A stretch of DNA of 64,000 nucleotides from Elusimicrobiota bacterium (GTDB lineage Bacteria; Elusimicrobiota; Elusimicrobia; UBA1565; UBA9628): assembly GCA_023249645.1 (NCBI GenBank), contig JAHFCF010000008.1:7257-71256 (forward strand), given 5' to 3'. Positions 5,693 through 55,629 of this stretch are shown piece after piece. The stretch's first letter is position 1. Every line of letters begins with the position of its first letter. The translations under genes were made by a program, and so were the position numbers. The notes beneath the pieces were generated by a model. The model saw only the letters and a program-made list of their open reading frames with translations. It was not told the origin of the DNA and did no database searches.

Positions 5693-5763
5693 GATGAGTA
5701 AACCATGCCAAATTAACCGTTGGCGGGCAAGAGGTTCAAAACGGAATCGTTCTTAGCGGGTCG

Positions 5764-5801
5764 TTATCCACAAACTCGCTGCGCAGCGAGTTTGTGGATA
5801 A
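5764..5801. promoter_or_regulatory. 38-bp perfect inverted repeat carrying two DnaA-box consensus 9-mers (TTATCCACA ... TGTGGATAA)
   Basis: TTATCCACAAACTCGCTGCG|CAGCGAGTTTGTGGATAA read directly. It lies between the xdh stop (5833) and the aconitase-family start (5692). Confidence 0.6.
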
Positions 5802-5832
5802 GTCTTCTGGAGGATTCGACGCGAGTTGAAAC

Positions 5833-8274
5833 TTATTTTTCTCGGCGCTGCAGCGCCAAGGCGACCTTCTCGGCCGTGATGGGCATGGATTGGATGCGGA
5901 TGCCGACCGCGTCTTCGACCGCGTTGGCCACCATGGAGGCGGCCGGGATCATCGTATGCTCGCCCACGCCGCGCGCGCCGTAGGGCCCGTCCGGCTGGGC
6001 GGCCTCGACGAGGATGGGGACCACCTCTTCGGGAGCATCCAAGGCTGTGGGAATCTTGTAATCCGAGAAATTCGGATTCAACAGCCGGCCCTTGGCGTCA
6101 AAGCGCATGTCCTCGTAGAGAACGGTGGCCAAGCCCTGCAAAAGCCCTCCGGTCACCTGTCCGCGGATGAGCTCGGGGTTCAGCGCCTTGCCCACGTCCG
6201 CGGCCAAGACGGCCTTCAAGACCTTCATCTTGCCCGTCGCCTTGTCGACTTCGAGGATGATGCCGCCCGCGCCCGTGGTGTAGTGGACGTTGGGGTGTCC
6301 TCCCTGGCCCGTTTCCGGGTTGCTGATGGCCGAGGCGAACTCAGGCATGAACATTCCGTGGCCCATGATGGGTCCGCCCTTGTAGGTGTGGTCCGCGGCT
6401 TGGATGCCGTTGATGACGAAATCCTTCAGGGGGAGCTTCCAGCCCTTGCGCTTGCGGCAAAGGACGGATTCGTTCTCGAGATAAAGGTCCTCTGTGTTCA
6501 GGCACAGAGCGCGCGTGACCGTGTCGAAGATCTGATCGCGCGCGTTCAGCGCCGCTTTTTTGACCGCGTTGCCGCAGCCCCAGGTCACGTGCGAACCCAC
6601 GGTCTGCCACTCATAGGGGTTGCGGTCCGTGTCCGGGGTCTCGACGCGGATCTTGGACATGGGCACGGTCAGGATCTCCGAGACGATCTGGGCCATGACG
6701 GTCAAGAGCCCCTGGCCGAGCTCCATGCCGGAGACGAGGAGGTTCACGCTGGCGTCCTCGTTGAATTTCAGGAAGGCCGAGGAGGAGGCGTTGGGCGGCA
6801 TGGCCGGCGCCTTCCAGTAGAGCACGAGGGCTTTGCCGATGGACTTGGTCGGGTCCTTGGAGACTTCTTTCTTGCCCCAGCGGATCTCGGCGGCGGTCTT
6901 GTCGATGGCCTCGGCCAAAGCCGTGGGATTCATGTGCGCGCCGTAGGCCAGGACGTCGCCTTCTTTAATCGCGTTCTTCTTGCGCAAGGCGACCGGGTCC
7001 ATCTTGAGCTTGCGGGCCAATTGCGTCATGTGGGACTCGAGTCCGAAGCCGAACTCGGAGTAGCCGAAGCCGCGGTAGGGGCCGCCCGGCGGCAGGTTGG
7101 TGTAGACGCAGACCGAGTCGATCTTGACATGCTCGATCTTGTAGGGTCCGGTGGCGGAGAGCCCCGTCGCGTTGACCACATTAGCGCCATATTCGACGTA
7201 AGCGCCGGCGTCCCAGTAGATCGTGTGCTCCAGGGCCGTGATGGCGCCGTTCTTCTTGACGCCCATCTTGATCTTGGAGACGACGCCTTGGCGCTGATAG
7301 GTGTTGTAGAACTCCTGCGCCCGGTTCCAGAGGATCTTGACCGGGTGGCCCTGCACCGTCGTGGCCAGGGCCGCGCCCAAGATCTCCATGGAGACCCCGG
7401 CCTTGCCGCCGAAGCCGCCGCCGACATAAGGGGTGATGACGCGCACGTCCTTGTGGGAGATGCCCAAGGGCGCCAGGGCCTCGGCAAAGCCGTGGCGTTG
7501 GGTGAAGGGCGACTGGGAGGCGGTCCAGACCGTGAGCCGGCCCGAGGCGTCATAAAGCCCGATGGCGCCGTGCACCTCGATGGCGCAATGGGCGTAGCGA
7601 GGGACGGTGTAGGTGTCTTCCAAGACGAGGTCCGCGTCCTTGAAGCCTTGAGCCGCGTCGCCCTTGCGGATCTTGCGCCAGTGGGCGATGTTGGTGCCGG
7701 CCTTGGGAAAGAACCACGGCACGTGCTGGTAGCGGGCCAGGTCCGGGTGGATGAGGGTCGCGTTCTTTTCCAGGGCCTTCATCGGATCGACGAGAGCGGG
7801 GAGCTCCTCATAGTCGACTTTCACGAGGGCCGCGGCCTTGAGGGCGGCCTTGGGGTTCCAGGCGATGACGGCGGCGACCTGCTCGCCGACGAAGCGCGCG
7901 CGGTCCTGGGCGAATATGTAGCGGTCCTTCATGTAGAGGCCGAACTTGTAGGGGAAATCAGCGCCGGTGACGACCTTGACCACGCCCGGGACCTTGAGCG
8001 CGGCCGATGTGTCGATCTTCTTGATGAGGGCGTGCGCCAACGGGCTTTCCACGACAGCGGCGAAGAGGAGTTTGGGTCCGAATTCGATGTCATCGACGAA
8101 CTGGGCCGCGCCCATGACCTTCTCCAAACCGTCGATGCGCGGCACGGAGCGGCCGACGGTCTTCAGTTCTTCCTTCGGATGGGACGGCACGGATTTTTCG
8201 CCGATCTTGAGGCCGCGCTGAAGCCGCTTGTGTCCGTTGTGATGATGTTTAGCTAGGAGTTTTGTGTGCGCCAT
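5833..8274 (-). CDS. Xanthine dehydrogenase/aldehyde oxidoreductase molybdopterin-binding large subunit
   Basis: 813 aa. The MoCo-binding family shows 'GGGFGGK' and 'GQGLLTVMAQIVSEILTV', plus the conserved C-terminal dimerisation region. Confidence 0.9.
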   Translation of the reverse strand: MAHTKLLAKHHHNGHKRLQRGLKIGEKSVPSHPKEELKTVGRSVPRIDGLEKVMGAAQFVDDIEFGPKLLFAAVVESPLAHALIKKIDTSAALKVPGVVKVVTGADFPYKFGLYMKDRYIFAQDRARFVGEQVAAVIAWNPKAALKAAALVKVDYEELPALVDPMKALEKNATLIHPDLARYQHVPWFFPKAGTNIAHWRKIRKGDAAQGFKDADLVLEDTYTVPRYAHCAIEVHGAIGLYDASGRLTVWTASQSPFTQRHGFAEALAPLGISHKDVRVITPYVGGGFGGKAGVSMEILGAALATTVQGHPVKILWNRAQEFYNTYQRQGVVSKIKMGVKKNGAITALEHTIYWDAGAYVEYGANVVNATGLSATGPYKIEHVKIDSVCVYTNLPPGGPYRGFGYSEFGFGLESHMTQLARKLKMDPVALRKKNAIKEGDVLAYGAHMNPTALAEAIDKTAAEIRWGKKEVSKDPTKSIGKALVLYWKAPAMPPNASSSAFLKFNEDASVNLLVSGMELGQGLLTVMAQIVSEILTVPMSKIRVETPDTDRNPYEWQTVGSHVTWGCGNAVKKAALNARDQIFDTVTRALCLNTEDLYLENESVLCRKRKGWKLPLKDFVINGIQAADHTYKGGPIMGHGMFMPEFASAISNPETGQGGHPNVHYTTGAGGIILEVDKATGKMKVLKAVLAADVGKALNPELIRGQVTGGLLQGLATVLYEDMRFDAKGRLLNPNFSDYKIPTALDAPEEVVPILVEAAQPDGPYGARGVGEHTMIPAASMVANAVEDAVGIRIQSMPITAEKVALALQRREK

Positions 8275-11742: not shown

Positions 11743-11997
11743 ATGAGAAACATCACCGCCACGGGCGCACGCAATGATCTCTTCAACGTCATCAAGCATT
11801 CCATCAAGACGCATCAGCCTTGGCATATCACGTCCCGCGCCGGCGAGGCGGTCCTTTTGTCCTTGGAGGATTTCGAGGATCTCATGGAGACCCTGGAATT
11901 GCTCTCCACGCCGGGGGTTTTAGCGGGCGTCCGCAAGGCCAGAAAGGAGATCAGGGAAGGGAAGACCTACTCCTTCGCGCAAGTCTTCGGTCATTGA
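11743..11997 (+). CDS. Type II antitoxin, Phd/YefM family
   Basis: 84 aa. 'ARNDLFNVIKHS…HQPWHITSRAGEAVLLSLEDFEDLMETLELLS' matches the YefM fold. A YoeB toxin gene follows 3 bp later. Confidence 0.8.
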   Translation: MRNITATGARNDLFNVIKHSIKTHQPWHITSRAGEAVLLSLEDFEDLMETLELLSTPGVLAGVRKARKEIREGKTYSFAQVFGH

Positions 11998-12000
11998 ACC

Positions 12001-12255
12001 GTGCCTTACGAGATCCTCATCACGCGCCAGGCCCGCAAAGACGTCGAGATGCTCACTCCTAAGTTAAGGAACAAGTTGCGGGAACTTTTGATCCACGTCA
12101 TCTCTCAGGATCCCTATGAAGGCAAGAAGCTCTTGGGGGACCTGGCCGGGAGTTATTCTTACCGGTTAAGCTTGAAGGACCGCTTGATCTACAGCATCGA
12201 CGAGAGCAAGAAAACCGTTTACCTTGAGCGTGCCCGGACTCATTACGGGGACTAA
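12001..12255 (+). CDS. yoeB: Type II toxin, Txe/YoeB family mRNA interferase
   Basis: 84 aa, GTG start. C-terminal 'YSYRLSLKDRLIYSIDESKKTVYLERARTHY' is the YoeB signature. Confidence 0.8.
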   Translation: MPYEILITRQARKDVEMLTPKLRNKLRELLIHVISQDPYEGKKLLGDLAGSYSYRLSLKDRLIYSIDESKKTVYLERARTHYGD

Positions 12256-14189
12256 AACTTGAGCTTCTGGCACGCGGCGCGGAAGAGAAGGACGCCCATC
12301 GCAGCGAACGCCGCGACTGAGACCCAATCCGCATAGTTGCCGAACATCCCGATCAGGTTGAAGCGCTCGCCGAGATTGAGCACATTCGCGAAATAGCCTT
12401 CCTTGACGCCTGCCAGGATCGCGATGGCGATGCCGGCCAAGCATCCTCCGGCCACGAGCCCAGTCGAGTAGAGCATCCCCGAGCTGATCTCTCCCTCGGA
12501 CTCGGCTTTCTTCTGGCTGACCCAGGCGACCGCGGGATTGATCATTCCTCCCACGAAGATGGGGAAGGTGGTCGAGAGCGGCAGGTACACCCCGACGGCG
12601 ACCGGCAGCGAGCGCACGCCCAAGAGTTCCACGAAGACCGAGATGAGCATGCCGGTGAAGACCAGGCCCCAGGGAAGCTCCTGCGCCAGAAGTCCCTTGA
12701 TGAGGGTCGCCATCAAGGTCGCTTGGGGCGCGGCGAGTTTCTCCGAGCCGATGGGGCCGTAGGGCGAGGTGTGAAGAAGGAAGAGCGTCACGCCGATGAC
12801 GGCGGTTGAGGCCAAGACACCGATGATGAGGCCCAGCTGCTGCTTGTAGGGGGTCGCGCCCACGATATAGCCGGTCTTTAAGTCCTGCGAGGTCGCCCCC
12901 GCGTTGGCCGCCGCGATGCAGACGACCGCGCCCACGAAGAGCGCGATGGCCTGATACGAGGCGCCGGTCCAGCCCAGGGCCACGAAGATGAGGCAGGTGG
13001 CCATGATCGTGCCGATGGTCATCCCCGAGATGGGGTTGGAGGAGGAGCCGATGATTCCCACGATGCGGCTGGACACGGTCACGAAGAAGAAGCCGAAGAC
13101 GAGGATCAAGAACGACATGATCAGGCTCGCGGGGAACTTGCCCGGGAACTGGGGAAGCACGGACATGATCAGGGCCAGGCCGAGCGAGCCCCACAGGACG
13201 TAGGGCATAGGGATGTCCTGTTCCGTCCGCTTGAGGGCTCCGGACGCTCCCGCGTTTTTCAAGTCCTTGAGGCTCCCCTTAAACGAGGAGACGATGGTCG
13301 GGATGGTGTGGATCAGCGTGAAAAGGCCGCCGGCGGCCACGGCTCCCGCGCCGATGTAGCGCACATAGCCGCGGTAGATCTCCAGGGGCGACATCTGAGA
13401 GATGAGTAGGCCCTTCCAGCCGGGCAGCATCGTGATGGCCAGCTTGTCGCCGAAGAGGGTGATGAGCGGTATGAGGACCATCCAGGACAAGACCGAGCCG
13501 GCCACGATCTGGGCCGCGCCCTTGGGACCGATGATGTAGCCCACGCCCAGATACTCGGGCGTGATCTCCGAGCAGATCGTGGCGTTGGGGAGCTGGCAGG
13601 CGCGGCTGGTGATATAGGAGGGGGTGTCCTTCCATAGACCGAACACGCTCATGAGGAGCTTGTAGACGATGGAGGTGTAGAGGCCGGAGAAGACCACCTT
13701 GGCCAGGTTGCCGCCCTTCTCTCCGGCGACCAGCACTTCGGCGCAGGCCGTCCCCTCGGGGTAGGGAAGGACCCCGTGTTCCTTGACGATCAGGGCGCGG
13801 CGCAGCGGGATCATGAAGAGGATGCCGAGTATGCCGCCCACCAGGGCCAGGGTGAAGATCTGGAAATACTGGAAGTACTGTTCGCCGTTGGACAGGAAGA
13901 TCAGGGCGGGCACGGTGAAGACGACGCCCGCGGCGATGGACTCGCCGGCCGAGCCGATGGTCTGCACGATGTTGTTCTCAAGGATCGTGGACTTGCCGAC
14001 CTTCTTGAAGACCGCGATGGCCAGCACCGCGATGGGGATCGAGGCCGAGACGGTCAGGCCCGCGCGCAGGGCCAGGTACACGGTCGAGGCGCCGAAGATG
14101 ACGCCGAAGATCGCTCCCAGGACGACCGCCTTGAGCGAGAACTCGGCGATGGACGAGGCGTCATCGATGTAAGGCTTGAATTCGTGCAT
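12252..14189 (-). CDS. OPT-family oligopeptide transporter
   Basis: 645 aa polytopic protein with OPT superfamily conserved blocks ('NIVQTIGSAGES', 'DLKTGYIVGATP'). It is convergent with yoeB, with a 4-bp overlap. Confidence 0.8.
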   Translation of the reverse strand: MHEFKPYIDDASSIAEFSLKAVVLGAIFGVIFGASTVYLALRAGLTVSASIPIAVLAIAVFKKVGKSTILENNIVQTIGSAGESIAAGVVFTVPALIFLSNGEQYFQYFQIFTLALVGGILGILFMIPLRRALIVKEHGVLPYPEGTACAEVLVAGEKGGNLAKVVFSGLYTSIVYKLLMSVFGLWKDTPSYITSRACQLPNATICSEITPEYLGVGYIIGPKGAAQIVAGSVLSWMVLIPLITLFGDKLAITMLPGWKGLLISQMSPLEIYRGYVRYIGAGAVAAGGLFTLIHTIPTIVSSFKGSLKDLKNAGASGALKRTEQDIPMPYVLWGSLGLALIMSVLPQFPGKFPASLIMSFLILVFGFFFVTVSSRIVGIIGSSSNPISGMTIGTIMATCLIFVALGWTGASYQAIALFVGAVVCIAAANAGATSQDLKTGYIVGATPYKQQLGLIIGVLASTAVIGVTLFLLHTSPYGPIGSEKLAAPQATLMATLIKGLLAQELPWGLVFTGMLISVFVELLGVRSLPVAVGVYLPLSTTFPIFVGGMINPAVAWVSQKKAESEGEISSGMLYSTGLVAGGCLAGIAIAILAGVKEGYFANVLNLGERFNLIGMFGNYADWVSVAAFAAMGVLLFRAACQKLKF

Positions 14190-15084: not shown

Positions 15085-15100
15085 AAAGGATTATAGGCCT

Positions 15101-15185
15101 TTTGGACTAGAAAGGTCTAGGTCCTAATTCCCTGAAAAATTGCCCAAAGGACCCAGGCGGGTTTTTAGGCCATGGGGTATAATAA
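15101..15185 (+). promoter_or_regulatory. Conserved promoter cassette copy A (inverted-repeat operator-like GGACTAGAAAGGTCTAGGTCC + 'ccctgaaaaattgccc' + TATAAT)
   Basis: It is about 80% identical over about 95 bp to 17590..17701. It ends with 'ggtataataaatgcagATG'. Confidence 0.6.
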
Positions 15186-15917
15186 ATGCAGATGCAGGGA
15201 GATATGAACATGAACAAGAATATCTGGCCGCTTCTCGCCTTGGGCGTCGCGCTGGTTTCCGTCGGCGCGAACAGCGCCTGGGCCTTGGAGGATCTCCCTG
15301 CCGGAGGCCTCTCGCAGATCACTGGGAACGAAAAAACGTCCGAGGACGTTAAAGCGGCTGGCGACGTCAAGGCGTGGGATGTGGGTGCGGCTCTCAAAGC
15401 CAGGTTTTCCAATTTCAATGCGCGAGTTGTCCAGGCGAATCAGCAGGCTCGTCCGTGGTGTTCGTATGGACCATGCATGACGAATGGGATGGCTGCTCGC
15501 TCCGACACGCAGTCTGCTGCTCCGGACACAAAAAACTGTTGGAGGTATTGGGGAGCATGCCCGGCCGTGAATGAGCCGGCGGCAGTTCAAGCCGTCGTTC
15601 CTTTGACGCCGACGGACTTCGGGGCCGGCCATTATGCACCGTATGAAACGAGCGCCTCGCTGAAAAACAGCGCTCCTTCCGCCGGCGATCAGGCAGCCCA
15701 GACCGCCAACAACTGTTGGCGGCATTGGGGAGGGTGCGCGGCTCTGAATCTGTCGGTCGCTCCCAAAGCCGAGCTCGCGCCGAAAACAGACGCTCAGCCT
15801 GCATCAGAAACAGCCATCAGGCCTGCGCCGGAAGTCGCCCTTTGGTCTAACCGAAATTCTCATGCCATGAGGGGCTGCGCGGGTTCCGAGAGGGACTGCG
15901 ATCGGATCTGGCGGTAG
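15186..15917 (+). CDS. Secreted hypothetical protein with duplicated Cys/Trp motif N-C-W-R-[YH]-W-G-[AG]-C
   Basis: It has a signal peptide (…ANSAWA|LED). Motifs are 'KNCWRYWGACPAVNE' and 'NNCWRHWGGCAALNL', plus 'CSYGPCM'. No family was recognised. Confidence 0.5.
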   Translation: MQMQGDMNMNKNIWPLLALGVALVSVGANSAWALEDLPAGGLSQITGNEKTSEDVKAAGDVKAWDVGAALKARFSNFNARVVQANQQARPWCSYGPCMTNGMAARSDTQSAAPDTKNCWRYWGACPAVNEPAAVQAVVPLTPTDFGAGHYAPYETSASLKNSAPSAGDQAAQTANNCWRHWGGCAALNLSVAPKAELAPKTDAQPASETAIRPAPEVALWSNRNSHAMRGCAGSERDCDRIWR

Positions 15918-15920
15918 GGC

Positions 15921-17276
15921 GTGTCTTCGCCGCGCCCTCGATGGACGTTAAGCTTCCCCTGCGCGTGTCTGCTCCTGCCCTTCTCTGTTCCGTCCGCCTG
16001 GGCCCTGATCGGCAACGGGCACGACAGCTTCTTCCAGGAAGTTGAAGCGGACCTGAGGTCGCTGCGCGACGAAGCCGCCGGCCTTTCTCAAAGCGTCCAG
16101 GTCTTCCAGAGCGACATCGTCCCTTGGACCCTGCGGATCACCGCCGAGTTCGCCGATGCTCCACGCAACCTCCAGCTGCTGACGAGCGGCCAGGCAGCGG
16201 AGTGGCGTTCGGTCGGCAATCCCAACGATCCTGCTGCCTTCTGCAAGCAGGAGTTCTTGGACATCCTCTGGCACGGTTTTACCGATGCTTCCGGGCACGT
16301 TCACCGGAGCATCCATTACTATCTGGGCAAGGCCCGGTTCAGCGGTCTTTTGTCTTTGGTTCCGCTCAAGGGCACCTATTGGCCCGTGGCCGTCTGGAAG
16401 GTCCCGGATCCCTTCGACATCACCCGCGCCCAGGCTGAGGCGAAGGGTTTTGAGCAGGGGCTTCGTGAGCGTGAGGACTATTGGGCCCGGGAGAAAGCCG
16501 TCTACAATCGCTACCTGCAGGCGTTCGATCAGATGTTGTCCGTAGACCCTTCTTTGCCGTTGGTCACGGATGAATTCGGCCGTCAGCATCCGGCTTCGCT
16601 TCTCGTCTGGAGGGATCGAGAGAGGGGCCGGAGCGTCGAGGCCGAGGCTGCGGCCAAGGATTCTTTGGCGAGGCTCGATGCCGAGGCTGAAATCATCAAC
16701 CAAGAGATCTCGGCGGATGCTCCGAAGCTCCCTCTGATCTCGACATTGGCGCCGGGCCGATTAAAGGGCGTCCTGCCGATATATGCCGCTCAGTTGAGTC
16801 GACTCGAGACCCAGAGCAGGGGTTTGCTGCGAGCCGAGCTCAGGCCCCTGCTGGCTGCGTTCATTGCCGCTGACTACTATTTCATCCGATGGGCGCAAGC
16901 CGACGCTGATCTGGCGCAGATCGATCAAGCCATCCCTATCCTGGAGAGGGCTCGGGCTGGCTTCTTGGACAGCATGAAAATGTTCGATGAGGTGGCCTCG
17001 GACATCCAGGCGGATCGGATCTTTGTGGCCGCAGAGGAACACAGCGGAGAAGAGATACAGGCCATGTTCCATCGCAAGAAGGTCCTGATCCAAGACACCA
17101 TCCTGCCGCGCTTGAGGGAAGCCAAGGCTCTTCTGGGGAGCGAGACGAGCCCGGGCACGCTGCTCTGGCTCCTGCAGCAGCGCCTCTTGGCTGTGGATCC
17201 GAAAGGCGCCAGCGGGCCCTACTACGCCATTTTCTCGAATCAAGTGGCCTTGAGGGACCTGGTCGATCGGTTTTAG
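15921..17276 (+). CDS. Secreted hypothetical protein (GNPNDP-motif family); translationally coupled to the upstream Cys-motif protein
   Basis: 451 aa, GTG start 4 bp after the upstream stop. It has a signal peptide (…SAWA|LIG). It shares 'W[RS].GNPNDP[AS]A' and C-terminal 'LIQ…PRL' blocks with the 40670..41674 protein. Confidence 0.5.
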   Translation: MSSPRPRWTLSFPCACLLLPFSVPSAWALIGNGHDSFFQEVEADLRSLRDEAAGLSQSVQVFQSDIVPWTLRITAEFADAPRNLQLLTSGQAAEWRSVGNPNDPAAFCKQEFLDILWHGFTDASGHVHRSIHYYLGKARFSGLLSLVPLKGTYWPVAVWKVPDPFDITRAQAEAKGFEQGLREREDYWAREKAVYNRYLQAFDQMLSVDPSLPLVTDEFGRQHPASLLVWRDRERGRSVEAEAAAKDSLARLDAEAEIINQEISADAPKLPLISTLAPGRLKGVLPIYAAQLSRLETQSRGLLRAELRPLLAAFIAADYYFIRWAQADADLAQIDQAIPILERARAGFLDSMKMFDEVASDIQADRIFVAAEEHSGEEIQAMFHRKKVLIQDTILPRLREAKALLGSETSPGTLLWLLQQRLLAVDPKGASGPYYAIFSNQVALRDLVDRF

Positions 17277-17320
17277 CCGGAGGTAAGAGCTCGCTCCAGT
17301 GAAGTTTCGACCAGCGCAAG

Positions 17321-17510
17321 GCGACTTATCCACCGACTCTTCGCGTGAAGAGCCGGCGGGCGAACTTGGTGCGCACCAAGTCAATCAACTGGCGGTCACA
17401 GTTGCCCAATAGACAAAAGTGTAACCCATGTGCCCGGTCTGCTTTGTACCTATGTGGCCGGTCTGTACCCAGTTGATCAACTGTTGCCGGCAACAGTTGG
17501 CCGAAAAATC
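17321..17510. repeat. Palindromic intergenic repeat element, copy X (DnaA-box-like TTATCCACC + hairpins CTCTTCGCGTGAAGAG, TTGGTGCGCACCAA, GTTGCCGGCAAC)
   Basis: Core 'cttggtgcgcaccaagt…aactg…cagt.gcc' is shared with copies near 38250 and 42955. This copy carries an internal insert with direct repeats 'atgtg[cg]ccggtctg'. Confidence 0.6.
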
Positions 17511-17589
17511 GCATTGAATTGATGAGTAAGCGTTTCAGCGCGGGCTGAGAACTTTATTTGGGCGAGCTGTTACAGCCGAAGTGCCCTCT

Positions 17590-17701
17590 AGGTCTTTGGA
17601 CCTAGAAAGGCCCAGGTCCAAATTCCCTGAAAAATTGCCCGATAGGCCCAGGCGCTTTTCCCATCCCCAGGCTATAATAAGGAAAGATGTAAAGGGAGGA
17701 T
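17590..17701 (+). promoter_or_regulatory. Conserved promoter cassette copy B (GGACCTAGAAAGGCCCAGGTCC inverted repeat + 'ccctgaaaaattgccc' + TATAAT)
   Basis: Paralogous to 15101..15185. It ends with 'ggctataataaggaaagatgtaaagggaggatATG' (SD GGAGG). Confidence 0.6.
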
Positions 17702-18205
17702 ATGACCATGAATAAGTCAACCTGGAAGTGCGCGGGACCTGTTTTTGTGTTGGCCATCGTGCTGATCTCCGCGGGCGCCGATCGCGCGTGGGCCTTGACG
17801 GACGTGTGCACTGAAAACTGCGACGTCACCCTGGAAGCCGTGAAACAGCTTGGAAGAGATCTGGCCGCTTGGAATGCTCAGCGGAAGATGCGCCAGGCTG
17901 TGGAGAAGCGGGAGGCCAGCAAGATCAATGATGAAGTCTTCGGTCCCCAGGCTCGATTTGAGAAGATCCTCCAGTGGGCGGAAGGCATTTCAAAGAAGGA
18001 TATGATCGGCCCCGTTGAACTCCAGCGCAAGGTGGTGGTCAGCGCTTCTGAGACCGTGGTCGTCTATACGGGGCGCGCGGTGACGAAGAAGAAAAACTGC
18101 ACGGTGACTCTCAGGAACTACTATCCGAGCAATCTGGCTCTCGATTCTATCGGTTGCGGCGGCAAGGCCGAGAAGACCTTTGTCGCTCCGTTCCAAAGCC
18201 GGTAG
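17702..18205 (+). CDS. Small secreted hypothetical protein
   Basis: 167 aa with a signal peptide (…ADRAWA|LTD) and 4 Cys. It is driven by promoter cassette B. No family was recognised. Confidence 0.5.
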   Translation: MTMNKSTWKCAGPVFVLAIVLISAGADRAWALTDVCTENCDVTLEAVKQLGRDLAAWNAQRKMRQAVEKREASKINDEVFGPQARFEKILQWAEGISKKDMIGPVELQRKVVVSASETVVVYTGRAVTKKKNCTVTLRNYYPSNLALDSIGCGGKAEKTFVAPFQSR

Positions 18206-28560: not shown

Positions 28561-29331
28561 ATGGCCATCCCTTCTTTCGAGCTTCGAGAGTCCTTTCAGC
28601 TGGCTTTCCTGCGCCATCTGCACGCCCGGCTATCCCCGAGCCGCGCCTACGCGGTCAAGGGGGGGATCTGCCTGCGTTTCTTCCATCGCTCTCCCCGTCT
28701 CTCTCAGGACATGGACCTCGACATCGTGCCCGATTTTCCAGTTTCCACGCTCCAAAACGCAGTGGATTCCATCCTGGAGGGACGGGCCTTCGCCGCATCG
28801 CTCATCGGTCAAGGGATCACGAGGCTTGAGGTGCGCAAGCCCAAGCAGACTCAGACAACGCAGCGCTGGAAGATATCCCTCTTTATGAGCGTGGGCGAGC
28901 CTCTGCCCACCAAGATCGAATTCAGCCGGCGCCAGGAGGACATCCGCACTGCCGTGGCCGCTCCGGACGCTGAACTTCTGCGTCGCTATCGGATGACGCC
29001 CTTTGCCGCCCGCTTCTACGACGCGACGACTATGGCGGCCCAAAAGGTCGGCGCGCTTGCCGCGGCCTCGCGCTATGCCGCGCGCGATCTTTTCGACATC
29101 CACCATCTGCTGCGCGTCGTTCTGGTCAAGCCGGTCGAGGTCGCTGCTTTGGTCGAATCGAAGATCGTGGAAAATGCAGCTGACAAGGTCACGGCCTTCT
29201 CTTATGGCGACTTCAAGGAGCAGGTCCTGCCTTATCTTTCGGGAGAGATGATGGACCTTTACCGCGACGCGGCGGCTTTTGAACAGCAGAAAGCCGAAGT
29301 CGAAGAAGACTTGCTGGAGATGTTGCGATGA
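28561..29331 (+). CDS. AbiEii/AbiGii-family nucleotidyltransferase toxin (type IV toxin-antitoxin)
   Basis: 256 aa. 'ESFQLAFLRHL…VKGGICLRFFHRSPRLSQDMDLD' matches the DUF1814/AbiEii N-terminal signature. Confidence 0.7.
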   Translation: MAIPSFELRESFQLAFLRHLHARLSPSRAYAVKGGICLRFFHRSPRLSQDMDLDIVPDFPVSTLQNAVDSILEGRAFAASLIGQGITRLEVRKPKQTQTTQRWKISLFMSVGEPLPTKIEFSRRQEDIRTAVAAPDAELLRRYRMTPFAARFYDATTMAAQKVGALAAASRYAARDLFDIHHLLRVVLVKPVEVAALVESKIVENAADKVTAFSYGDFKEQVLPYLSGEMMDLYRDAAAFEQQKAEVEEDLLEMLR

Positions 29332-29936
29332 GCGCCGCCGGTCTGGTCAAGCTCATGCAGAAGCACTCCCTGCGGGTCTTTACGACTACGGATATGGCCG
29401 CGATCTCGGGCCTTTCGCCAGCTACGGCTAGCAAGGCCTTGGCACGGCTTTGCGCCCAGGACTTGGCCGTGCGGCTCAAGAAGGGCGTGTGGGTCAATAA
29501 GTTGGCCGCGGATCTGAATCCCTACGAGGCCGTGCCGTATCTGCGGATACCATGGCCTGCTTATGTGTCTCTGTACAGCGTTCTGGCGGATTGCGGCGTG
29601 GTCGAGGATATCCCGCAAGTGATTTATGGGGTCTCGGCGGCGCCGCCAAAATTCTATCGGACGCCTCTGGGAGAATTCCATATTCATCACCTGCCGGACC
29701 GGCTCATCTGGGGCTACGAGGTCCGGCATCAAGGACAGGCCCGATATCTTGCCGCTGAGCCGGAGAAAGCATTCCTCGACTTGGTCTATCTGGCGCTCAT
29801 CCCTAGGTGTCCGCTGAGTTTCCCCGTCAAACGCGGTAGGAAATGGGCGCTGGATGCGCAAAAACTTCGTTCCTACGCCAAGCGGTTTGGATTTCCTCCG
29901 CTCAGCTCCTGGCTCGAAGAAAACCGCCTCTTATAA
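29328..29936 (+). CDS. AbiEi-like antitoxin (N-terminal wHTH + AbiEi C-domain)
   Basis: 202 aa with a wHTH 'MAAISGLSPATASKALARLCAQDLAVRLKKGVWV'. It shares an ATGA overlap with the upstream AbiEii gene. The gene order is reversed relative to canonical abiEi-abiEii. Confidence 0.6.
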   Translation: MSAAGLVKLMQKHSLRVFTTTDMAAISGLSPATASKALARLCAQDLAVRLKKGVWVNKLAADLNPYEAVPYLRIPWPAYVSLYSVLADCGVVEDIPQVIYGVSAAPPKFYRTPLGEFHIHHLPDRLIWGYEVRHQGQARYLAAEPEKAFLDLVYLALIPRCPLSFPVKRGRKWALDAQKLRSYAKRFGFPPLSSWLEENRLL

Positions 29937-29940
29937 AAAT

Positions 29941-31368
29941 TCAGCGCCCTTCCTGCCACTGAGGAGTCTGGTCCGCGTTGTATTCGCGCCGGGCGACCTT
30001 CGAGACTTCTGGCCTGAGATAATCGTAGACCGCCTGCAGGTCCGATCCCTTCTCCTTGAGGCCCTTGAGGAAAAAATAGGTGAAGAGTCCGTGGCCCTTG
30101 TCCTGATAGCTGGACGAGATCTGATCGCCGGCCGCTGCCGTGATGACGGTCAGGTTCTGCGGCACATTGTTCGCGGCCATGGTGACCAAGGGCCGCGCTC
30201 CCCGGGCGATGACCGAGCGGCCTCCGGCGCCTGAAAAGCACGAGTCCATGGCCACGACGACCTTCTTGGCCGGCAGCTTGCCGAGATCGCGATAGAGCTT
30301 GGCGATCGAATATCCGGTCTGCTCGATGTAGGTCGGGTCGGCGTCGAAGGGGACGAGATACGCCTCGCCTGTCTTGGGGTTGGGGGCTCCATGGCCCGAG
30401 TAGTAGATGTAGATCGTGTCGCCCTCTTCGACCCTGTTGGGCAGCCAGCGTTCGAAGTACTTTTCGAAGTCGCTCTTCGCCGCCTGATCGTTGATCAGGA
30501 CCGCGACGTTCTCCTCCGGCACGCCGAGCACGCGCTCGTAGTACTTGGCGGCCAGGCGCGCGTCAGCGGCCGCGAAGTCGGCGTGCGGCAGGGCTTGGCG
30601 ATAGTTCTCGATCCCTATGACGATGGCGTGCGTGTGAGGCTGAGATATCGATGCGGGGGGAAGCGCGTCGATCTCGCTCGACACGGCGCTTGCCGGAAGG
30701 TTTGCCACCACGGGCGCGCGCTGCGGACGTGTCGGTGAGCGCAGGGCCTGCGCGTACTGGATGAACTTGGGGCCGTTGGTCAGGCTGAGCAGGACGTTGT
30801 TGATCGCTGTCGTAAAGGCCTCTTGCAGGCCAGTGCTGCGAGACCAGCCTTCCTGCGTGAAGGAGGCTTCGGCCAGGGCATGCTGGCCGGAACTGTCCAG
30901 GAACTTGGCAGGGACGCTGACAGTGTAGCGCCATTCGTCGGGAGGGACGAAGATGGGGAAGATCTCCCAGAAGGCGATGAATTGGAGGACGCAGACGCTC
31001 GATGCATCGAGTGTGGGAGGGGAGAATTCGATGAGGGCGTCGTACTGGCCCAAGGCCGAGGCCTTGTCCGCGACCAGATCGACTTCCTTGAATCTCGACT
31101 TGACCATCTCATAGGCCAGGCGGATGTATTCCTGATCGTAGGGGAGCGTCACGATGGTCTGGCCGATGATGCAGCGCGTCGGGACCACCACCGGCGGCAT
31201 GGCCGAGGTTTCCGGCATCACGAGACCGATCCTGAGGGGAATGGGTTGTGCATTGGTTATAGGAACGTTGTAGTTCGGATCGAATCTCACCTGGTGCTGC
31301 AGGGTGCAGGCTGCCAAGCTGCTGATGACGAGGCAGGCGAGGAGGGGCTTGAGGAATGATTTTTTCAT
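29941..31368 (-). CDS. Lipoprotein caspase-family protease (peptidase C14 / orthocaspase), paralog 1
   Basis: Start at 'MKKSFLKPLLACLVISSLAAC' (lipobox LAAC). The C-terminal domain carries the His-Cys dyad: 'HAIVIGIENY', 'YYSGHGAP', 'DSCFSGAGG'. The N-terminal about 240 aa is of unknown fold. Confidence 0.8.
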   Translation of the reverse strand: MKKSFLKPLLACLVISSLAACTLQHQVRFDPNYNVPITNAQPIPLRIGLVMPETSAMPPVVVPTRCIIGQTIVTLPYDQEYIRLAYEMVKSRFKEVDLVADKASALGQYDALIEFSPPTLDASSVCVLQFIAFWEIFPIFVPPDEWRYTVSVPAKFLDSSGQHALAEASFTQEGWSRSTGLQEAFTTAINNVLLSLTNGPKFIQYAQALRSPTRPQRAPVVANLPASAVSSEIDALPPASISQPHTHAIVIGIENYRQALPHADFAAADARLAAKYYERVLGVPEENVAVLINDQAAKSDFEKYFERWLPNRVEEGDTIYIYYSGHGAPNPKTGEAYLVPFDADPTYIEQTGYSIAKLYRDLGKLPAKKVVVAMDSCFSGAGGRSVIARGARPLVTMAANNVPQNLTVITAAAGDQISSSYQDKGHGLFTYFFLKGLKEKGSDLQAVYDYLRPEVSKVARREYNADQTPQWQEGR

Positions 31369-31372
31369 GGTT

Positions 31373-32881
31373 TCACCGTCCTTCCTGCCATTGGGGGGTC
31401 TGGTCCGCGTTGTATTCGCGTCGCGCGACCTTCGAAACCTCGGGCTTGAGATAATCATAGACCGCTTGCAGGTTCGGGCCTTTTTCCTTAAGACCCTTTA
31501 GGAAGAAGTAGGTGAAGAGTCCGTGGCCCTTGTCATCATAGCTCGTGGAGATCTGGTCGCCGGCAGCGGCCGTGAGCACCGTGAGGTTTTCGGGGACATC
31601 GGATGTCTTGAGTGTGACCAGGGGCCGCGCGCCCCGGGCGATGACCGAGCGGCCGCCGGCGCCGGAGAAGCACGAGTCCATGGCCACGACGACCTTCTTG
31701 GCCGGCAGCTTGCTGAGATCTCGATAGAGCTTGGCGATCGGATAGCCGGTCTGCTCGATGTAGGTCGGGTCGGCGTCATAGGGGACGAGATAAGCCTCGC
31801 CGGTCTTGGGATTCGGCGCGCCGTGTCCCGAGTAGTAGATGTAGACTGTGTCGCCCGCCTCCACGCGGTTGGGCAGCCAGCGCTCAAAATACTTCTCGAA
31901 GTCGCTTTTGGCGGCCTTGTCGTTGATAAGGAGCGCGACGTTCTCCTCCGGCACGCCGAGCACTCGCTTGTAGTACTTCGCGGCTAGTCGCGCGTCGGCA
32001 GCCGCGAAGTCGGCGCTCGGCAATTTCTCGCGGTAGTTCTCAACGCCGATGACGATGGCGTGGGAATGCGCGTTGGATGCCGAGGCGGAGGGAAGCTCGT
32101 CGATGTCGCTGCGCCGGGAGGCTGTCGTGGGCGCTGGCGGGGCAGCGGGCATCTGCGGCGAGGATTCAGCGGCGGGTTCTTCGGGAGCTGACATCGGTCC
32201 GGAGGGCGTCTGTTTTCTTTTCTTCGACCTTCGAGATGGAGTGGTCCTGGCCGTCGGCGCGGCAGCGACGATCTGTTGGCGCGAGGGGGCGCGGCCTTCG
32301 ATCAGCGCGACGAAGTCCTGGGATTCGAGGGTCGGCCCCATTCCCTGGACCGCGTTGGCGAGCGCTGTATTGATGGCTTGGCTGAAGCACGCATCCGGCC
32401 GGCCGAAGCCGGGGCGCAGGCCATTGGCCGTGCCCGTGAAGGTCCAGGAGAGCACGTTCTTTTGCCGGCGGTCCTTGATGGCCAAGGCGAAGGTGACCTT
32501 CCCGATGATCTTGTCATCAAGGCCTTCGGAACCGAGGTATCTGACGGACGCCTGCGTGAGCGAGGTTGCGAAGATCGCCTCGGCTTGAGCCGGATCCGTG
32601 GTCGTGGGCAGCTGCAGGCGGCCCAATTCTGTGACCAGGGCTTCCTGGAGGACCTCGGACATCGGACGATCCGCCTGCCAGAGCCCTTGATAAGTGGAGA
32701 TGCCTCCCGATAGATCGGTGGCAGCGTCCACGTAGACGATCGGCCGGCGCGGACCTTGGAAAGCGCGTGGGTTGGTTGTGGGATCGTACTTGAGGGTGAG
32801 GATGTCTGCGCAGCCGGAGAGCGTGCTGAGAAGCAGCGCGAGACTGGAAAATCTGAGGAGACGGCGCTCCATGTTCATCAT
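31373..32881 (-). CDS. Lipoprotein caspase-family protease (peptidase C14), paralog 2
   Basis: Lipobox 'LSTLSGC'. The caspase domain is about 90% identical to paralog 1 ('YYSGHGAP','DSCFSGAGG'). The N-terminal region is unrelated and has a Pro/Ala/Ser-rich linker. It lies 4 bp upstream of paralog 1. Confidence 0.8.
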   Translation of the reverse strand: MMNMERRLLRFSSLALLLSTLSGCADILTLKYDPTTNPRAFQGPRRPIVYVDAATDLSGGISTYQGLWQADRPMSEVLQEALVTELGRLQLPTTTDPAQAEAIFATSLTQASVRYLGSEGLDDKIIGKVTFALAIKDRRQKNVLSWTFTGTANGLRPGFGRPDACFSQAINTALANAVQGMGPTLESQDFVALIEGRAPSRQQIVAAAPTARTTPSRRSKKRKQTPSGPMSAPEEPAAESSPQMPAAPPAPTTASRRSDIDELPSASASNAHSHAIVIGVENYREKLPSADFAAADARLAAKYYKRVLGVPEENVALLINDKAAKSDFEKYFERWLPNRVEAGDTVYIYYSGHGAPNPKTGEAYLVPYDADPTYIEQTGYPIAKLYRDLSKLPAKKVVVAMDSCFSGAGGRSVIARGARPLVTLKTSDVPENLTVLTAAAGDQISTSYDDKGHGLFTYFFLKGLKEKGPNLQAVYDYLKPEVSKVARREYNADQTPQWQEGR

Positions 32882-32899
32882 TCCATTATACCATCCGGC

Positions 32900-33898
32900 C
32901 TAATTCTTTTTTTGAGCGGCTTTTTCCAGCGCCTTCAGTCCCGCATCGATGACGGCCTCATTGACGTTCCACAGCCGCAGGGTCTGGTCGTCGGATCCCG
33001 AAAGGACCCAGAGTCCGTCCGGGGAGAAGGCCACTGTGTTGACTCGGCCCGTGTGTCCGGTCCAGGTCTTGAGGCATTCGCCCGTCGCCGTCCTCCAAAG
33101 CTTGACCGTCATGTCGTAGCTGGAGGAGGCCACCAGTGAGCCGTCCGGCGAGAAAGCGGTCCAGTTCACCGTCTTGTCGTGCCCTTCCCAGATCGTCTTG
33201 AAGGCTCCGGTGTGCGCGTCCCAGAGCTTGATCGCGCCGTCCCATCCGCCGGTCAGGGCGATATTCCCGTCAGGGGAGAGTTCGGTCTCCGTGATCAGTC
33301 CTGTCGGAGAGGCCAGGGTGGCCAGGAGCTTGCCGGTGGCGACATCCCGGATCTCGGAGTCCGCGCCGCCGGCCAGCGTCTTGGTCCCGTCCGCGGAGAA
33401 GGCGACGGATTGGACATAGTCCCTGTGCACGGGCCAGTAAGGGACCTCACGGTCGGTGGATACGTCCCACAGCTTCAGGGTCTGGTCGGAGGCGCCGGAG
33501 AGGATCTTCTTGCCGTCCGGGGAAAACAGCGCGGTGTAGACGAAGATGCCGTGCCCCGGCGTTTCGAAGAGTTCCTTGCCCGTGGCCGCGTCCCAGGCTC
33601 GCAAGGAGAGCATGTCGCTGGCGGACAGCACGGTCTTGCCGTCCGGGCTGAAGGCGACGGCGATGACCGGGCTCGTGTGCCCCTGGAAGACGAAGAGGGT
33701 CTCTCCCGTGGACGTGTCCCAGAGGCGCACGGTCTGATCGCGGCTGCCGGAGAGGGCTTTGGTCCCGTCCGGGGAGAAGGCCGCGCAGAGCACGTCGTTG
33801 GTGTGGCCGTACCATATCGCCTGGAACCTCGTCGGATGATGGTTGGCAGAGGTGCAGCCCAGCGTGAAGAGAAAAGCGGCCGCCAACGCACGCTTCAT
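32900..33898 (-). CDS. WD40-repeat lipoprotein (7-bladed beta-propeller)
   Basis: Start at '[15 protein letters not shown]' (lipobox), 89 codons inside ORF 32900..34165. It has seven 'SPDG…W[DN]' repeats. Its ATGA overlaps the AsnRS-like stop. Confidence 0.8.
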
Positions 33899-35214
33899 GG
33901 ATAGATTCGATAGAGCATGCGCGGAAAGGCGATGGCCTCGCGGACGTGCTCGATGCCGCATAGCCACGAGGTGGTGCGCTCGATGCCCAAGCCGAAGCCT
34001 CCGTGCGGGACCGAGCCGTAGCGGCGCAGGTCCAGGTACCACTCGAAGGCCTCCTTCGGGAGCTTGTGCTTGGCGATCTGGGCTTCGAGGTAAGCCAGGT
34101 CGTCGGCGCGCTGGCCGCCGCCGATGATCTCGCCATAGCCCTCGGGGGCCAGGACATCCACGCACAGGGCCAGGCGCTCATCGGCCGGGTCGCGCTTCAT
34201 ATAAAAGGCCTTGACCTCGGCGGGGAAGCGGTGGACCATGACCGGCTGGTCGAACTCCGAACAGACGGCCGTCTCCTGGGGTGCGCCGAAGTCATCTCCC
34301 CAGACGAAGGGGACGTTCTTTCTCTTGAGGATGGCCGCGGCCTCGTCATAGCTGATGCGCGGGAAGGGGGCCGCGATCTTCTCGAGCTTGGAGGTGTCGC
34401 GCTCGAGCTCTTGGAATTCTTTGGGACAGGCCTTGAGCACATAATTCACGACGTGCGAGACGAAGCGCTCGGCCGTGTCCATGACGCCGTTCAAGTCGCA
34501 GTAGGCGATCTCCGGCTCCACCATCCAGAACTCGGTCAAGTGCCGCCGCGTCTTGGAGCGTTCAGCGCGGAAGGTCGGGCCCAGGCAGTAGACCTTGCCT
34601 AAGGCCATGGCCGCGGCCTCCATGTAGAGCTGGCCGGACTGGGTGAGGTAGGCCTTGCCCTCCTCGAAATATTCGAGCTCGAAGAGGTTCGTCGTGCCCT
34701 CGCAGGCGCTCGGCGTGAAGATGGGGGCGTCCACCTGGGTGAAGCCTTCTCCATCGAAGAAATCGCAGATCGCGCGCTTGACCTGATGGCGCACCCGGGC
34801 GATGGCCGCCTGCTTGCGCGAGCGCAGCCAGAGATGCCGTTGGCTGAGCAGGAAGTCCGGGCCGTGCTCCTTGGGGCCGATGGGGTATTCCGGGCCCTGG
34901 TGGACGACGACGAGGTCCTTGACCGCGAGCTCGACGCCTGAGGCCGCGCGCGCATCCGCCTTCACCGTTCCGCGAACGACGATCGCGGCTTCCTGGGCGA
35001 GGGACTTGGCCTTCTCGAAAACCTCGGGGGGTACGTCGCCCTGGAACAGGACGCACTGGCAGATGCCCGAGCCGTCGCGCACGAGCAGGAAGGCGAGCTT
35101 GCCCTTCAAGCGCATGTTGTAGAGCCAACCCTGGAGCGTGACCTCTTGGCCGATCTTTGAGGTCAGGTCCTGGATGCGCGCTGCGGGCGGGAACGTATCG
35201 GGCAGAGTGGTCAT
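33895..35214 (-). CDS. asnS: Class IIb aminoacyl-tRNA ligase, asparagine--tRNA ligase-like (or archaeal-type AspRS)
   Basis: 439 aa. It has the N-terminal OB anticodon-binding domain, motif 2 'FRAE', and motif 3 '[10 protein letters not shown]'. Its size fits AsnRS or short AspRS. Confidence 0.8.
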
Positions 35215-38077: not shown

Positions 38078-38249
38078 GCAGATCTCCTTGTCTGGAGGAT
38101 TTTCTCTGAGCATATACTAACATCACCCAGGCTTTTGCCTCTGGGTCCATTGGACTAGGAAGGGGGCGGCAAAGGACCTAGATGAAAATAGGAAAAAAGA
38201 CCTATTTTCTAAGAGCCGCTCGTCTCAGCAGGGATCGCTGGATGTTCCG

Positions 38250-38365
38250 GCAGACTGATCCACAAGCTCTTCGCGCGAAGAGTCTGTCAGATGAAATTGG
38301 TGCGCACCAAGTTGATGAACTGTGTCCGGACACAGTCGCCGATTGGGTCCAACTCGGCTCAGGCC
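38250..38365. repeat. Palindromic intergenic repeat element, copy Y (TGATCCACA + CTCTTCGCGCGAAGAG + TTGGTGCGCACCAA + TGTGTCCGGACACA + CCAACTCGGC)
   Basis: It has the same hairpin order as copy X. It lies between the S41 peptidase start and the XRE gene. The spurious ORF 38182..38373 covers it. Confidence 0.6.
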
Positions 38366-38468
38366 GAATTTGATGGATAGATCGGCCAGAAAGTTTGTTG
38401 AAACTTAGATATCTTATATGATATGTATCTATTTGGTTGAAAGCGGACTGGTTGAGGAGGAGCGCGGC

Positions 38469-42951: not shown

Positions 42952-42954
42952 GGA

Positions 42955-43050
42955 GAGCTTGGTGCGCGCCAAGTTGAGGGGTGCTGTGTCCGGACACAGT
43001 TCCAACGCTGGCCCAACTCGGCCTGGACCGAGTCGGTGGATAACTCCGCT
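42955..43050. repeat. Palindromic intergenic repeat element, copy Z (TTGGTGCGCGCCAA + TGTGTCCGGACACA + CCAACTCGGCC…CCGAGTCGGTGGATAA)
   Basis: It is the same family as copies X and Y. It ends with the reverse complement of copy X's 'TTATCCACCGACTC'. It overlaps the 5' end of the cupin ORF. Confidence 0.55.
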
Positions 43051-55595: not shown

Positions 55596-55629
55596 GGCGC
55601 TGTATTATGCCATTTCAAAACAGATGGAA

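Follow-up and report, generated by a model that had tools for sequence, protein, structure and literature searches.

A probable family of hairpin-forming, REP-like intergenic repeats in an uncultivated member of the Elusimicrobiota

The 64,000-nucleotide stretch of DNA analyzed here (positions 7,257 to 71,256 of contig JAHFCF010000008.1 from an Elusimicrobiota bacterium; hereafter, the window) is ordinary chromosome with genes for purine/allantoin catabolism, peptidases, transporters, an AbiE pair, and caspase/WD40 paralogues. Four loci with five end units have been documented in it: three composite palindromic elements on the plus strand, referred to as copies X (17323 to 17505), Y (38253 to 38383), and Z (42953 to 43046), and a solo unit (5764 to 5801). 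Copy X starts 46 nt past the stop codon of an open reading frame (ORF) at 15921 to 17276; copy Y is located between divergent genes for an S41 peptidase (35261 to 38113, minus strand) and a helix-turn-helix (HTH) regulator (38418/38469 to 38771, plus strand); copy Z occupies the junction of an aminotransferase gene and a cupin gene, 0 to 5 nt past the stop codon of the former; and the solo unit is found 31 nt 3' of the stop codon of a molybdenum cofactor (MoCo)-dependent dehydrogenase gene (5833 to 8274, minus strand). These elements probably make up a family of intergenic repeats that are non-autonomous, form hairpins, and belong to the repetitive extragenic palindrome/bacterial interspersed mosaic element (REP/BIME) type; they resemble miniature inverted-repeat transposable elements (MITEs) in having inverted ends. 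A preliminary description of X, Y, and Z had suggested a REP/MITE-like repeated element, and this suggestion is borne out by the homology of the copies, their inverted ends, and their dispersal among unrelated genes. The copies are modular, the tops of their hairpins covary, and the intergenic sites that they occupy lie mostly just 3' of stop codons.

The homology among X, Y, and Z is real and far above chance. With Y as a single-sequence query, nhmmer recovered X (E=1.5e-9) and Z (E=3e-8), with no further significant match in the window (128-kb search space). The H1 motif CTCTTCGCG(Y)GAAGAG is found at 17337 to 17352 in X and 38267 to 38282 in Y; the H2 motif TTGGTGCGC(R)CCAA is found at 17366 to 17379 in X, 38297 to 38310 in Y, and 42959 to 42972 in Z; and the H3 motif CTGTGTCCGGACACAG is found at 38320 to 38335 in Y and 42984 to 42999 in Z, the X version of it, CTGTTGCCGGCAACAG, being part of a longer palindrome. 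The H2 motif has six strand matches in the window versus 1.24 expected, a count reached in none of 100 shuffles. The preliminary description had all three loci sharing one ordered string of palindromes. Its motifs are indeed present where it placed them and the loci are homologous, but H1 is limited to X and Y and is absent from Z, whereas CCAACTCGGC is limited to Y (38349 to 38358) and Z (43013 to 43022) and is absent from X, so that only H2 and H3 are common to all three copies. Two of its other details had to be revised: Y does not end at 38365 but extends to approximately 38380, a boundary set by its right arm GATGGATAG, and the three copies are not the full set in the window, as a fourth, minimal copy, the perfect 38-bp palindrome TTATCCACAAACTCGCTGCGCAGCGAGTTTGTGGATAA of the solo unit, had been overlooked and turned up in a scan for DnaA boxes. 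Neither an nhmmer profile nor a covariance model revealed window copies beyond these four.

The basic unit comprises 38 bp, a 17-bp stem with a 4-nt center. Its foot has the form TTATCCAC-MRR-CTC...GAG-YYK-GTGGATAA, and its top is variable but paired; read from the outside inward, TTAT-CCAC-MRR-CTC is followed by a 3-bp top and the 4-nt center and then by GAG-YYK-GTGG-ATAA. The flanks, RAG or GAC on the left and CTY on the right, both prolong the palindrome, giving a fuller foot of (RAG/GAC)-TTATCCAC-MRR-CTC...GAG-YYK-GTGG-ATAA and a hairpin of ∼38 to 44 bp. The solo unit with its 3-nt flanks (5761 to 5804) is recognized both by its fold (−27.7 kcal/mol, z=−8.0) and by the covariance model (61 bits, compared with 50.5 bits for the left end unit of X and 40.8 bits for the right end unit of Z). 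The TTATCCAC motifs form terminal inverted repeats, (GAC)TTATCCACMRRCTC. If one mismatch is allowed, the only sites of TTATCCACMRRCTC in the window are 17326 (+), 38256 (+), 43043 (−), 5764 (+), and 5801 (−). Each end of a composite is itself a hairpin unit, H1 being the top of the left unit and the CCAACTCGGC hairpin the top of the right unit, whereas H2 and H3 have the frame (A)ACT-stem-center-stem-AGT(Y) without the outer arm. Because the frame ACT-stem-loop-stem-AGT is common to H1 through H4, all modules are variants of a single unit, and the composites X, Y, and Z are clusters of units bounded by inverted arms.

The composites are mosaics of these modules. Copy Y, the most complete one, consists of a left arm (GAC-TGATCCACA), H1 (CTCTTCGCGCGAAGAG), H2 (TTGGTGCGCACCAA), H3, and an inverted right unit (38346 to 38380, minus strand; CTATCCATCAAATTCGGC-CTGA-GCCGAGTTGGACC) that combines the CCAACTCGGC hairpin with an arm. 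Copy X lacks the right unit with its arm. It runs from the left arm (GAC-TTATCCACC) through H1, H2, a degenerate H3', a 24-nt tandem duplication, and a degenerate H2' to a perfect H3. Its left end unit (17326 to 17359; TTATCCACCGACTC-TTCGCGTGAA-GAGCCGGCGG) folds on the minus strand with z=−4.4, the arm and H1 forming a 13-bp stem with two G·U pairs in the minus-strand reading; H2 (17364 to 17381; ACTTGGTGCGCACCAAGT) and H3 (17478 to 17499; CAACTGTTGCCGGCAACAGTTG) are perfect palindromes of 18 and 22 bp, respectively, and the inner stem of H3 has TG..CA where Y and Z have GT..AC, a compensatory double change. What had been described as an internal insertion in X is an internal duplication with no foreign DNA: a diverged copy (∼92 nt) of the H2-linker-H3 segment (17368 to 17391 versus 17460 to 17483 and 17390 to 17407 versus 17485 to 17502), in addition to the 24-nt tandem duplication at 17424 to 17465 (ACCCATGTGCCCGGTCTG / ACCTATGTGGCCGGTCTG). 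Copy Z lacks the left arm and H1 and retains H2 (TTGGTGCGCGCCAA), H3, and an inverted right unit (43010 to 43043, minus strand; TTATCCACCGACTCGG-TCCAGG-CCGAGTTGGGCC), which matches the left arm of X exactly over its first 14 nt. The composites have preserved the outward TTATCCAC arm but not the inner sequence that paired with it, which has decayed; the arm is therefore read as sequence. Fold z-scores of whole elements are modest, from −0.8 to −2.5.

Searches for the composite form elsewhere gave no match: exact scans for its signature (H2 plus H3) found nothing in the GTDB species genomes, the JGI metagenomes, or IMG/VR, BLAST with Y against plasmids and with the unit against plasmids and phages was likewise negative, and so were exact scans of IMG/VR for the left arm plus H1 and for the solo unit. 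Judging from the empty signature scans, the composite form seems confined to a lineage outside those collections. A protein query joined from the six-frame peptides of X, Y, and Z had no match at E≤10, as variable module spacing breaks the reading frames. A ∼2.4-kb extension of the window contained no copy.

The unit itself, in contrast to the composites, is found in metagenomes. An exact scan of the JGI metagenomes with both arms and a free interior (TTATCCACMRRCTC-N4-30-GAGYYKGTGGATAA) returned 14 loci, which have GC contents of 61 to 70% and come from six or more projects, with several unit loci per metagenome. The interior is exactly 10 nt long in all 14 loci; it is a perfect palindrome in 11 and one substitution away from one in the other 3 (L086, L093, and L094). 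At least five founder variants can be distinguished, GTCGCGCGAC, GTTCCGGAAC, GACCCGGGTC, and GTTACGTAAC, plus GCTGCGCAGC in the window. Covariation had been named beforehand as a check, and the tops of the hairpins do covary: when 20 units are aligned, the four inner pairs (left free by the scan) show zero to one unpaired cells and up to four pair types, and the covariation score is 0.237 versus 0.128 in shuffles, with none of 500 shuffles reaching the observed value. When the partners are slid by 1 to 3 columns, pairing falls from 90% to ∼37%. The states of pair 13-32 include A-T, G-C, and the G·T/A·C intermediates; by inspection, about half of the G·T intermediates are on the transcribed strand. 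The central 4-mer is self-complementary in 13 of the 17 full units, which places the symmetry at the level of DNA. In locus L094 (61% GC), 3 units are found in 14.6 kb, two of them in tandem with 12 nt between them and the other ∼10 kb away; one of these units has the top ACTTGGT..ACCAAGT, which is similar to H2 of the window and links the solo units to the composites. A series that leads from solo unit to tandem units and on to the window's fused composites is therefore plausible.

Among the carriers, L091 belongs to the Elusimicrobiota, as all named matches of its aspartokinase (72 to 91% identity) come from Elusimicrobia. For the carrier loci in general, nearest-neighbor comparison of tetranucleotides hints weakly at Elusimicrobiota (37 of 44 correct in leave-one-out), and a caspase-like protein encoded in L085 is 59% identical to one from the window. 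For the aminotransferase of the window, the best named relatives are in Elusimicrobia metagenome-assembled genomes (72 to 80% identity; 80% at best for GTDB representatives, which do not include the species itself). An identical aminotransferase is present on ENA and Logan contigs and in one NCBI metagenome-assembled genome. The distribution of the unit is patchy: the covariance model and nhmmer profile detected no unit in ∼230 kb from other Elusimicrobiota, and BLAST detected none in 1.29 Mb of comparison loci (L001 to L083).

At 10 of the 15 metagenome sites, the unit starts 1 to 11 nt past the stop codon that ends an ORF of 100 codons or more, and several units are located between convergent ORFs. 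The adjoining genes are unrelated and code for an esterase, a beta-lactamase, an S33 hydrolase, an exonuclease, QueC, and a TPR protein. Copy Y, in its divergent promoter region, is an exception to this placement. The orientation of X, Y, and Z is the same, and two of them (X and Z) are within plus-strand transcription units.

Copy Z can be compared with empty sites in relatives. In the Elusimicrobia loci L003/L004 and L006, which were anchored on the class I/II aminotransferase gene (41755 to 42951 in the window, plus strand), the stop codon of that gene and the start codon of the cupin gene overlap as ATGA with no spacer. The window still has this ATGA at 42948 to 42951 (plus strand, within 42948 to 42955), but the old cupin ATG opens a 9-codon dead-end frame. 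The two genes are ∼75 to 90 bp apart, 74 to 80 nt of sequence are net extra, and the conserved cupin N terminus, P-L-I-R-S-L-R-L-K-P-H, resumes directly past the right arm of Z. The sole open cupin frame starts at TTG 42959 or GTG 42962, both inside H2, the GTG being 6 nt downstream of an AGGAG (42951 to 42955, plus strand). In this frame, the Cupin_5 (DUF985) gene spans 42962 to 43483 (plus strand), and the Pfam match begins at about residue 31. Copy Z is thus an insertion, one that has separated two genes formerly coupled in translation through an ATGA overlap, and on the predicted frames the cupin has to start at the GTG or TTG within hairpin H2, gaining ∼27 residues encoded by the element. 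The suspicion that Z had displaced the start codon of the cupin gene is in this way supported by L004 and L006, which keep the spacer-free overlap, and by the out-of-frame ATG of the window. The similarity of "SNAGP" encoded in Z to "SEAGP" of a relative was considered as a trace of the ancestral N terminus and rejected, as those bases align with element sequence in Y. No target-site duplication was detected at Z by comparison with the empty sites, and the flanks of the units are inverted, palindrome-extending sequences, not direct repeats. Public gene calls in this region disagree: on L001/L002 (window region 43432 to 45471), the Logan call has the cupin starting from GTG 42962 whereas the ENA call has no cupin, and the upstream HTH gene is called at 100 or 117 amino acids (aa) in public assemblies.

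A further occupied site that can be compared with empty ones is in the L091 carrier, where the unit is found downstream of an RNase_T gene. Five loci with conserved synteny and aspartokinases 83 to 91% identical (L099, L100, L101, L102, and L103) are unit-free at this site and across ∼20 kb each. In the longer locus L105, the insert that is absent from the orthologous site of L099 to L103 is a block of ∼1 kb, comprising the unit and a gene for an HNH nuclease (11771 to 12739, minus strand). The product of this gene (297 to 322 aa) has an HNH domain (PF01844, 31.6 bits versus a cutoff of 21.4) and a weak DUF222 N terminus, and the called ORF runs through the palindrome, ending ...LSTDSSRDESVDNS.... 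A homolog in L096 (763 to 1677, plus strand) starts 45 nt downstream of a unit; the two are 58% identical in the alignment (55% by tblastn), and ∼35 nt of leader are conserved between the genes. A DUF222-like/HNH gene therefore adjoins the unit at 2 of the 15 metagenome sites, in different carrier organisms, with the unit on one side only, 5' of the gene in L096 and 3' of it in L105. The unit-free loci (∼1.6 Mb) contain only one weak relative of this rare gene family, and no homolog was found in IMG/VR. This adjacency is suggestive (a rough p of ∼0.003, based on two cases). It is doubtful, if conceivable, that the TTATCCAC-footed palindromes are the cis partner of the DUF222-like/HNH nuclease, an HNH-based counterpart of the REPtrons that are built around a REP-associated tyrosine transposase (RAYT); in such a system, a structure-specific beta-beta-alpha-Me nuclease would recognize the foot of the hairpin or cruciform and spread or maintain the units. 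As for other mobilizing enzymes, annotation of ∼40 to 45 window proteins with Pfam and NCBIfam revealed no transposase, a motif scan for RAYTs (HUH, W-Q-x-R-F, and Y-x-x-x-N-P) found nothing in ∼200 kb, a small part of any carrier genome, and the comparison loci contained no unpaired half-sites flanking a gene.

The recurrence of a DnaA-box consensus in the elements, which had seemed striking at first, is a real resemblance, but its excess vanishes once the element ends are set aside. The DnaA-box-like 9-mers are found at 17326 (X), 38256 (Y), and 43035 (Z). With at most one mismatch, TTATCCACA occurs 12 times in the window versus 4.3 expected; 5 of the 12 are element ends, and the 7 outside the elements are no excess over the same expectation. 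The only two perfect boxes in the window are those of the solo unit; of the other boxes in the elements, three match at 8 of 9 positions, that of the right arm of Y at 6 of 9, and those of X and Z are degenerate at position 9. All of them sit within a longer hairpin foot, and the likeness is most simply taken as a property of the conserved foot, TTATCCAC(A), that is, of the terminal inverted repeat. It would be very unlikely that X, Y, Z, and the solo unit are functional DnaA-binding sites for titration or reactivation, in the style of datA, DARS, or box clusters, and that the family was selected for that role. The perfect boxes of the solo unit, the near-perfect ones at the ends of X, Y, and Z, and the retention of the outward arm despite its decayed partner, as if conserved for something besides local pairing, are what speaks for it, and there is a precedent in the outside end of IS50/Tn5, where a DnaA box is present and DnaA serves as a host factor. 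The likeness to that end is short: AAG comes after its DnaA box TTATACACA, compared with GAC-TTATCCACAAG/AAC at the ends in the window, whose elements have neither an IS4-family transposase nor a 9-bp duplication and have ends that are parts of hairpins. Against the proposal, the conserved ACTCG...CGAGT beyond the box and the covarying top are irrelevant to DnaA, the units hug the stop codons of unrelated genes, GC skew indicates no origin in the window, and we estimate the probability of a chance match of 8 to 9 nt within a consensus of ∼140 bp at ∼0.004 to 0.03, before other matchable motifs are counted. A mobilizing enzyme would be the most economical reader of the arm, ahead of DnaA; with two DnaA boxes per unit, a mobile DnaA-titrating sequence may be entertained as a secondary possibility.

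Other roles have been weighed for the palindromes, each with some support from their structure or position. That they are operators for one or more dimeric DNA-binding proteins, such as the adjacent XRE-type HTH regulator or a nucleoid protein, and hence a regulon motif, is suggested by palindromes that are perfect through the center, as befits symmetric dimers, and by the placement of Y in a divergent promoter region beside an HTH gene. Yet the neighboring genes are unrelated over 15 sites, the units lie 3' of stop codons or between convergent genes, not at promoters, Z sits within an operon junction that is spacer-free in relatives, and the inner half-sites vary freely while remaining complementary, where a protein would need a fixed sequence; this makes a regulon motif improbable. 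To much the same degree it is improbable that the hairpins are primarily the terminators or 3'-end stabilizers of this lineage, made alike by convergent selection, although 10 of the 15 units start no more than 11 nt past a stop codon, several are located between convergent genes, and a second, unrelated palindrome family (GGGTCAGGC...) is found in a like position. No stem is followed by a T-run, either in the window modules or in the metagenome units, and no terminator-like site is found within X or Y, in agreement with the preliminary description, which held that these were not simple terminators; Y occupies a promoter region, and Z separates neighboring genes of a single operon; and convergence cannot yield an identical foot of 14 to 17 nt 3' of unrelated genes in different organisms. 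A terminator role is best understood as something that follows secondarily from the repeats, and not as a rival account of their origin. Slightly less probable again is that the elements specify an RNA, either a structured small one, as the preliminary description had also proposed, or a cis-regulatory one. The stability of the hairpins, their compensatory changes, the common orientation of X, Y, and Z with X and Z in plus-strand transcription units, and a T-to-G change in H2 of Z that gives a G·U pair on the plus strand only would all be compatible with it. But Rfam has no match at X, Y, Z, or the solo unit, whether at gathering scores or at E≤1; scans of X and Y found neither a promoter-like site nor an element-associated terminator; the whole-element folds are modest and the module content varies among copies; the palindromy is strand-symmetric, continuing in the majority of full units through the "loop," for which an RNA hairpin has no need; and the G·T/A·C intermediates show no preference for the transcribed strand. 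The parS or dif-like sites, which differ in sequence, were rejected as identities for the units given their too many variants and location at gene ends, and the CIRCE and HAIR operators were rejected because their sequences differ.

The reading preferred here, a REP/BIME-type family of non-autonomous repeats, would involve the following steps. In other Elusimicrobiota, the unit would exist singly or in tandem; in the source organism, units would have been fused into clusters of 2 to 4 hairpin modules, in which only the outward-facing TTATCCAC arms were retained to serve as terminal inverted repeats. The copies may have spread through a trans-acting enzyme that recognizes the conserved foot, for which the DUF222-like/HNH protein is the sole candidate partner, and the inserted and transcribed hairpins would probably function at 3' ends or in mRNA stability, and as local barriers, in the manner of REPs in other bacteria. 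Several points weigh against this reading. Conservation of the outer 14 nt in the metagenome units is there by construction, being set by the search pattern. The covariation is no proof of function, because template-switch correction of quasipalindromes could keep palindromes perfect, and the symmetry may stem from the way in which variants arise as much as from selection. Of the 14 carriers, protein searches placed L091 alone. The copy number in the source genome is known from the window alone, as four loci in 64 kb. An empty site for the element by itself is provided by Z only, the L105 case being one of a unit-plus-HNH block. Finally, with no target-site duplication, GTAG/CGTC tag, RAYT, or transposase found, the mechanism of mobilization is pure inference.

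In REP/BIME families, as surveyed by Di Nocera et al. (2013; PMC3733652) in, e.g., Escherichia coli, Pseudomonas, and Stenotrophomonas, with Elusimicrobiota not among the surveyed phyla, super-families are defined by an unpaired terminal GTAG or CGTC tag, and "untagged" REP-like families were left to study. The family described here shares with REPs and BIMEs palindromic stem-loop units of 20 to 40 bp, an extragenic location, mainly 3' of ORFs and in the gaps of unidirectional or convergent gene pairs, several variants of stem and loop per family, inverted pairs, clusters, and an uneven, lineage-specific distribution. It differs in having longer stems (17 bp), mostly perfect through the center, in a foot that coincides with the DnaA-box consensus, and in that no RAYT was found in the DNA examined. 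REPs usually number tens to hundreds of copies per genome; documented here are four loci in the 64 kb of the window and 3 units in 14.6 kb of L094. A test for the GTAG/CGTC tag found no consistent tag in the window or metagenome units, which assigns the family to the "untagged" REP-like ones. Like bacterial MITEs (such as Correia elements, ERIC, and RUP), the composites are noncoding, measure ∼90 to 185 bp, have terminal inverted repeats of 14 to 17 nt, insert between genes, can alter neighboring genes (Z supplies a new start codon), and are present or absent at orthologous sites (Z versus L004/L006; the L105 block versus L099 to L103). Unlike MITEs, they have no detectable target-site duplication, and a parent insertion sequence sharing their ends was not found; their interior is a string of hairpin units and not the remnant of an insertion sequence, and X and Z each lack one end. 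A possible analogy is with the REPtrons, i.e., RAYT/TnpA-REP genes flanked by their own REPs, as described by Corneloup et al. (2021; PMC8266576), who also distinguish REPs with perfect palindromes as a group: a nuclease gene is located beside the unit at 2 of 15 sites, and in one of these the gene and unit form one inserted block. In contrast to REPtrons, the neighbor is a DUF222-like/HNH (beta-beta-alpha-Me) protein and not an HUH/Y1 one, the unit is on one side, and there are two cases. A literature search for the arm sequences gave only irrelevant primer matches, and no paper was found that links Elusimicrobia with REPs.

Other repeats were noticed in the window. A second palindrome family, similarly built but unrelated to the first, is found at 1097 to 1143 and in L101 (11769 to 11845) and L102 (18397 to 18473), that is, in three different Elusimicrobiota. 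It has the foot GGGTCAGGC...GCCTGACCC and a long variable top, abuts stop codons (TAG-A-GGGTCAGGC), and in the window gives a sub-threshold match to Rfam "mir-1256" on both strands (45.6 bits). A promoter- or operator-like repeat with the palindromes CTAGGTC..GACCTAG and GGACCT..AGGTCC and the ends TATAATAA occurs at 15094 to 15194 and 17589 to 17689, upstream of the unannotated ORFs 15186 to 15917 and 17702 to 18205 (74% identity), with a partial third copy (38140 to 38215) just to the left of Y, so that X and Y each adjoin a copy of this repeat. Around X, the segment from 15186 to 18205 contains three consecutive ORFs (243, 451, and 167 aa) with no Pfam or NCBIfam match and a slightly lower GC content (0.585). 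Elsewhere in the window, tandem paralogous genes for caspase-domain proteins (Peptidase_C14; 29941 to 32881 and 32900 to 34165) have 83 to 89% DNA identity over 228 to 300 nt and adjoin a gene for a WD40-repeat protein; the AbiEii/AbiEi toxin-antitoxin pair (28561 to 29936) is just upstream of them, and a further C14 gene is located at 53150 to 54619. A small gene for a cold-shock domain (CSD in the L084 gene calls) is preceded by a segment, 55565 to 55985, with a sub-threshold match to the Rfam cspA thermoregulator (33 bits; gathering score, 78).

Small palindromic repeats affect mRNA stability, termination, recombination, and gene disruption in bacterial genomes. To our knowledge, such repeats have been cataloged almost wholly in cultivated Proteobacteria and a few other phyla. 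The present one is a previously undescribed REP/BIME-like family in uncultivated Elusimicrobiota, a familiar kind of repeat and not a new kind of system. It documents REP-like repeats in this phylum, together with a series from solo unit to tandem units to fused composite. For annotators, repeats of this type upset the automated choice of start sites and lead to inconsistent gene calls; copy Z is a clean case in which an element has broken a coupled gene pair and donated a start codon and an N terminus. Being untagged, and RAYT-less in the DNA examined, the family bears on the spread of "untagged" REP-like repeats, with the HNH gene as a testable candidate for their partner.

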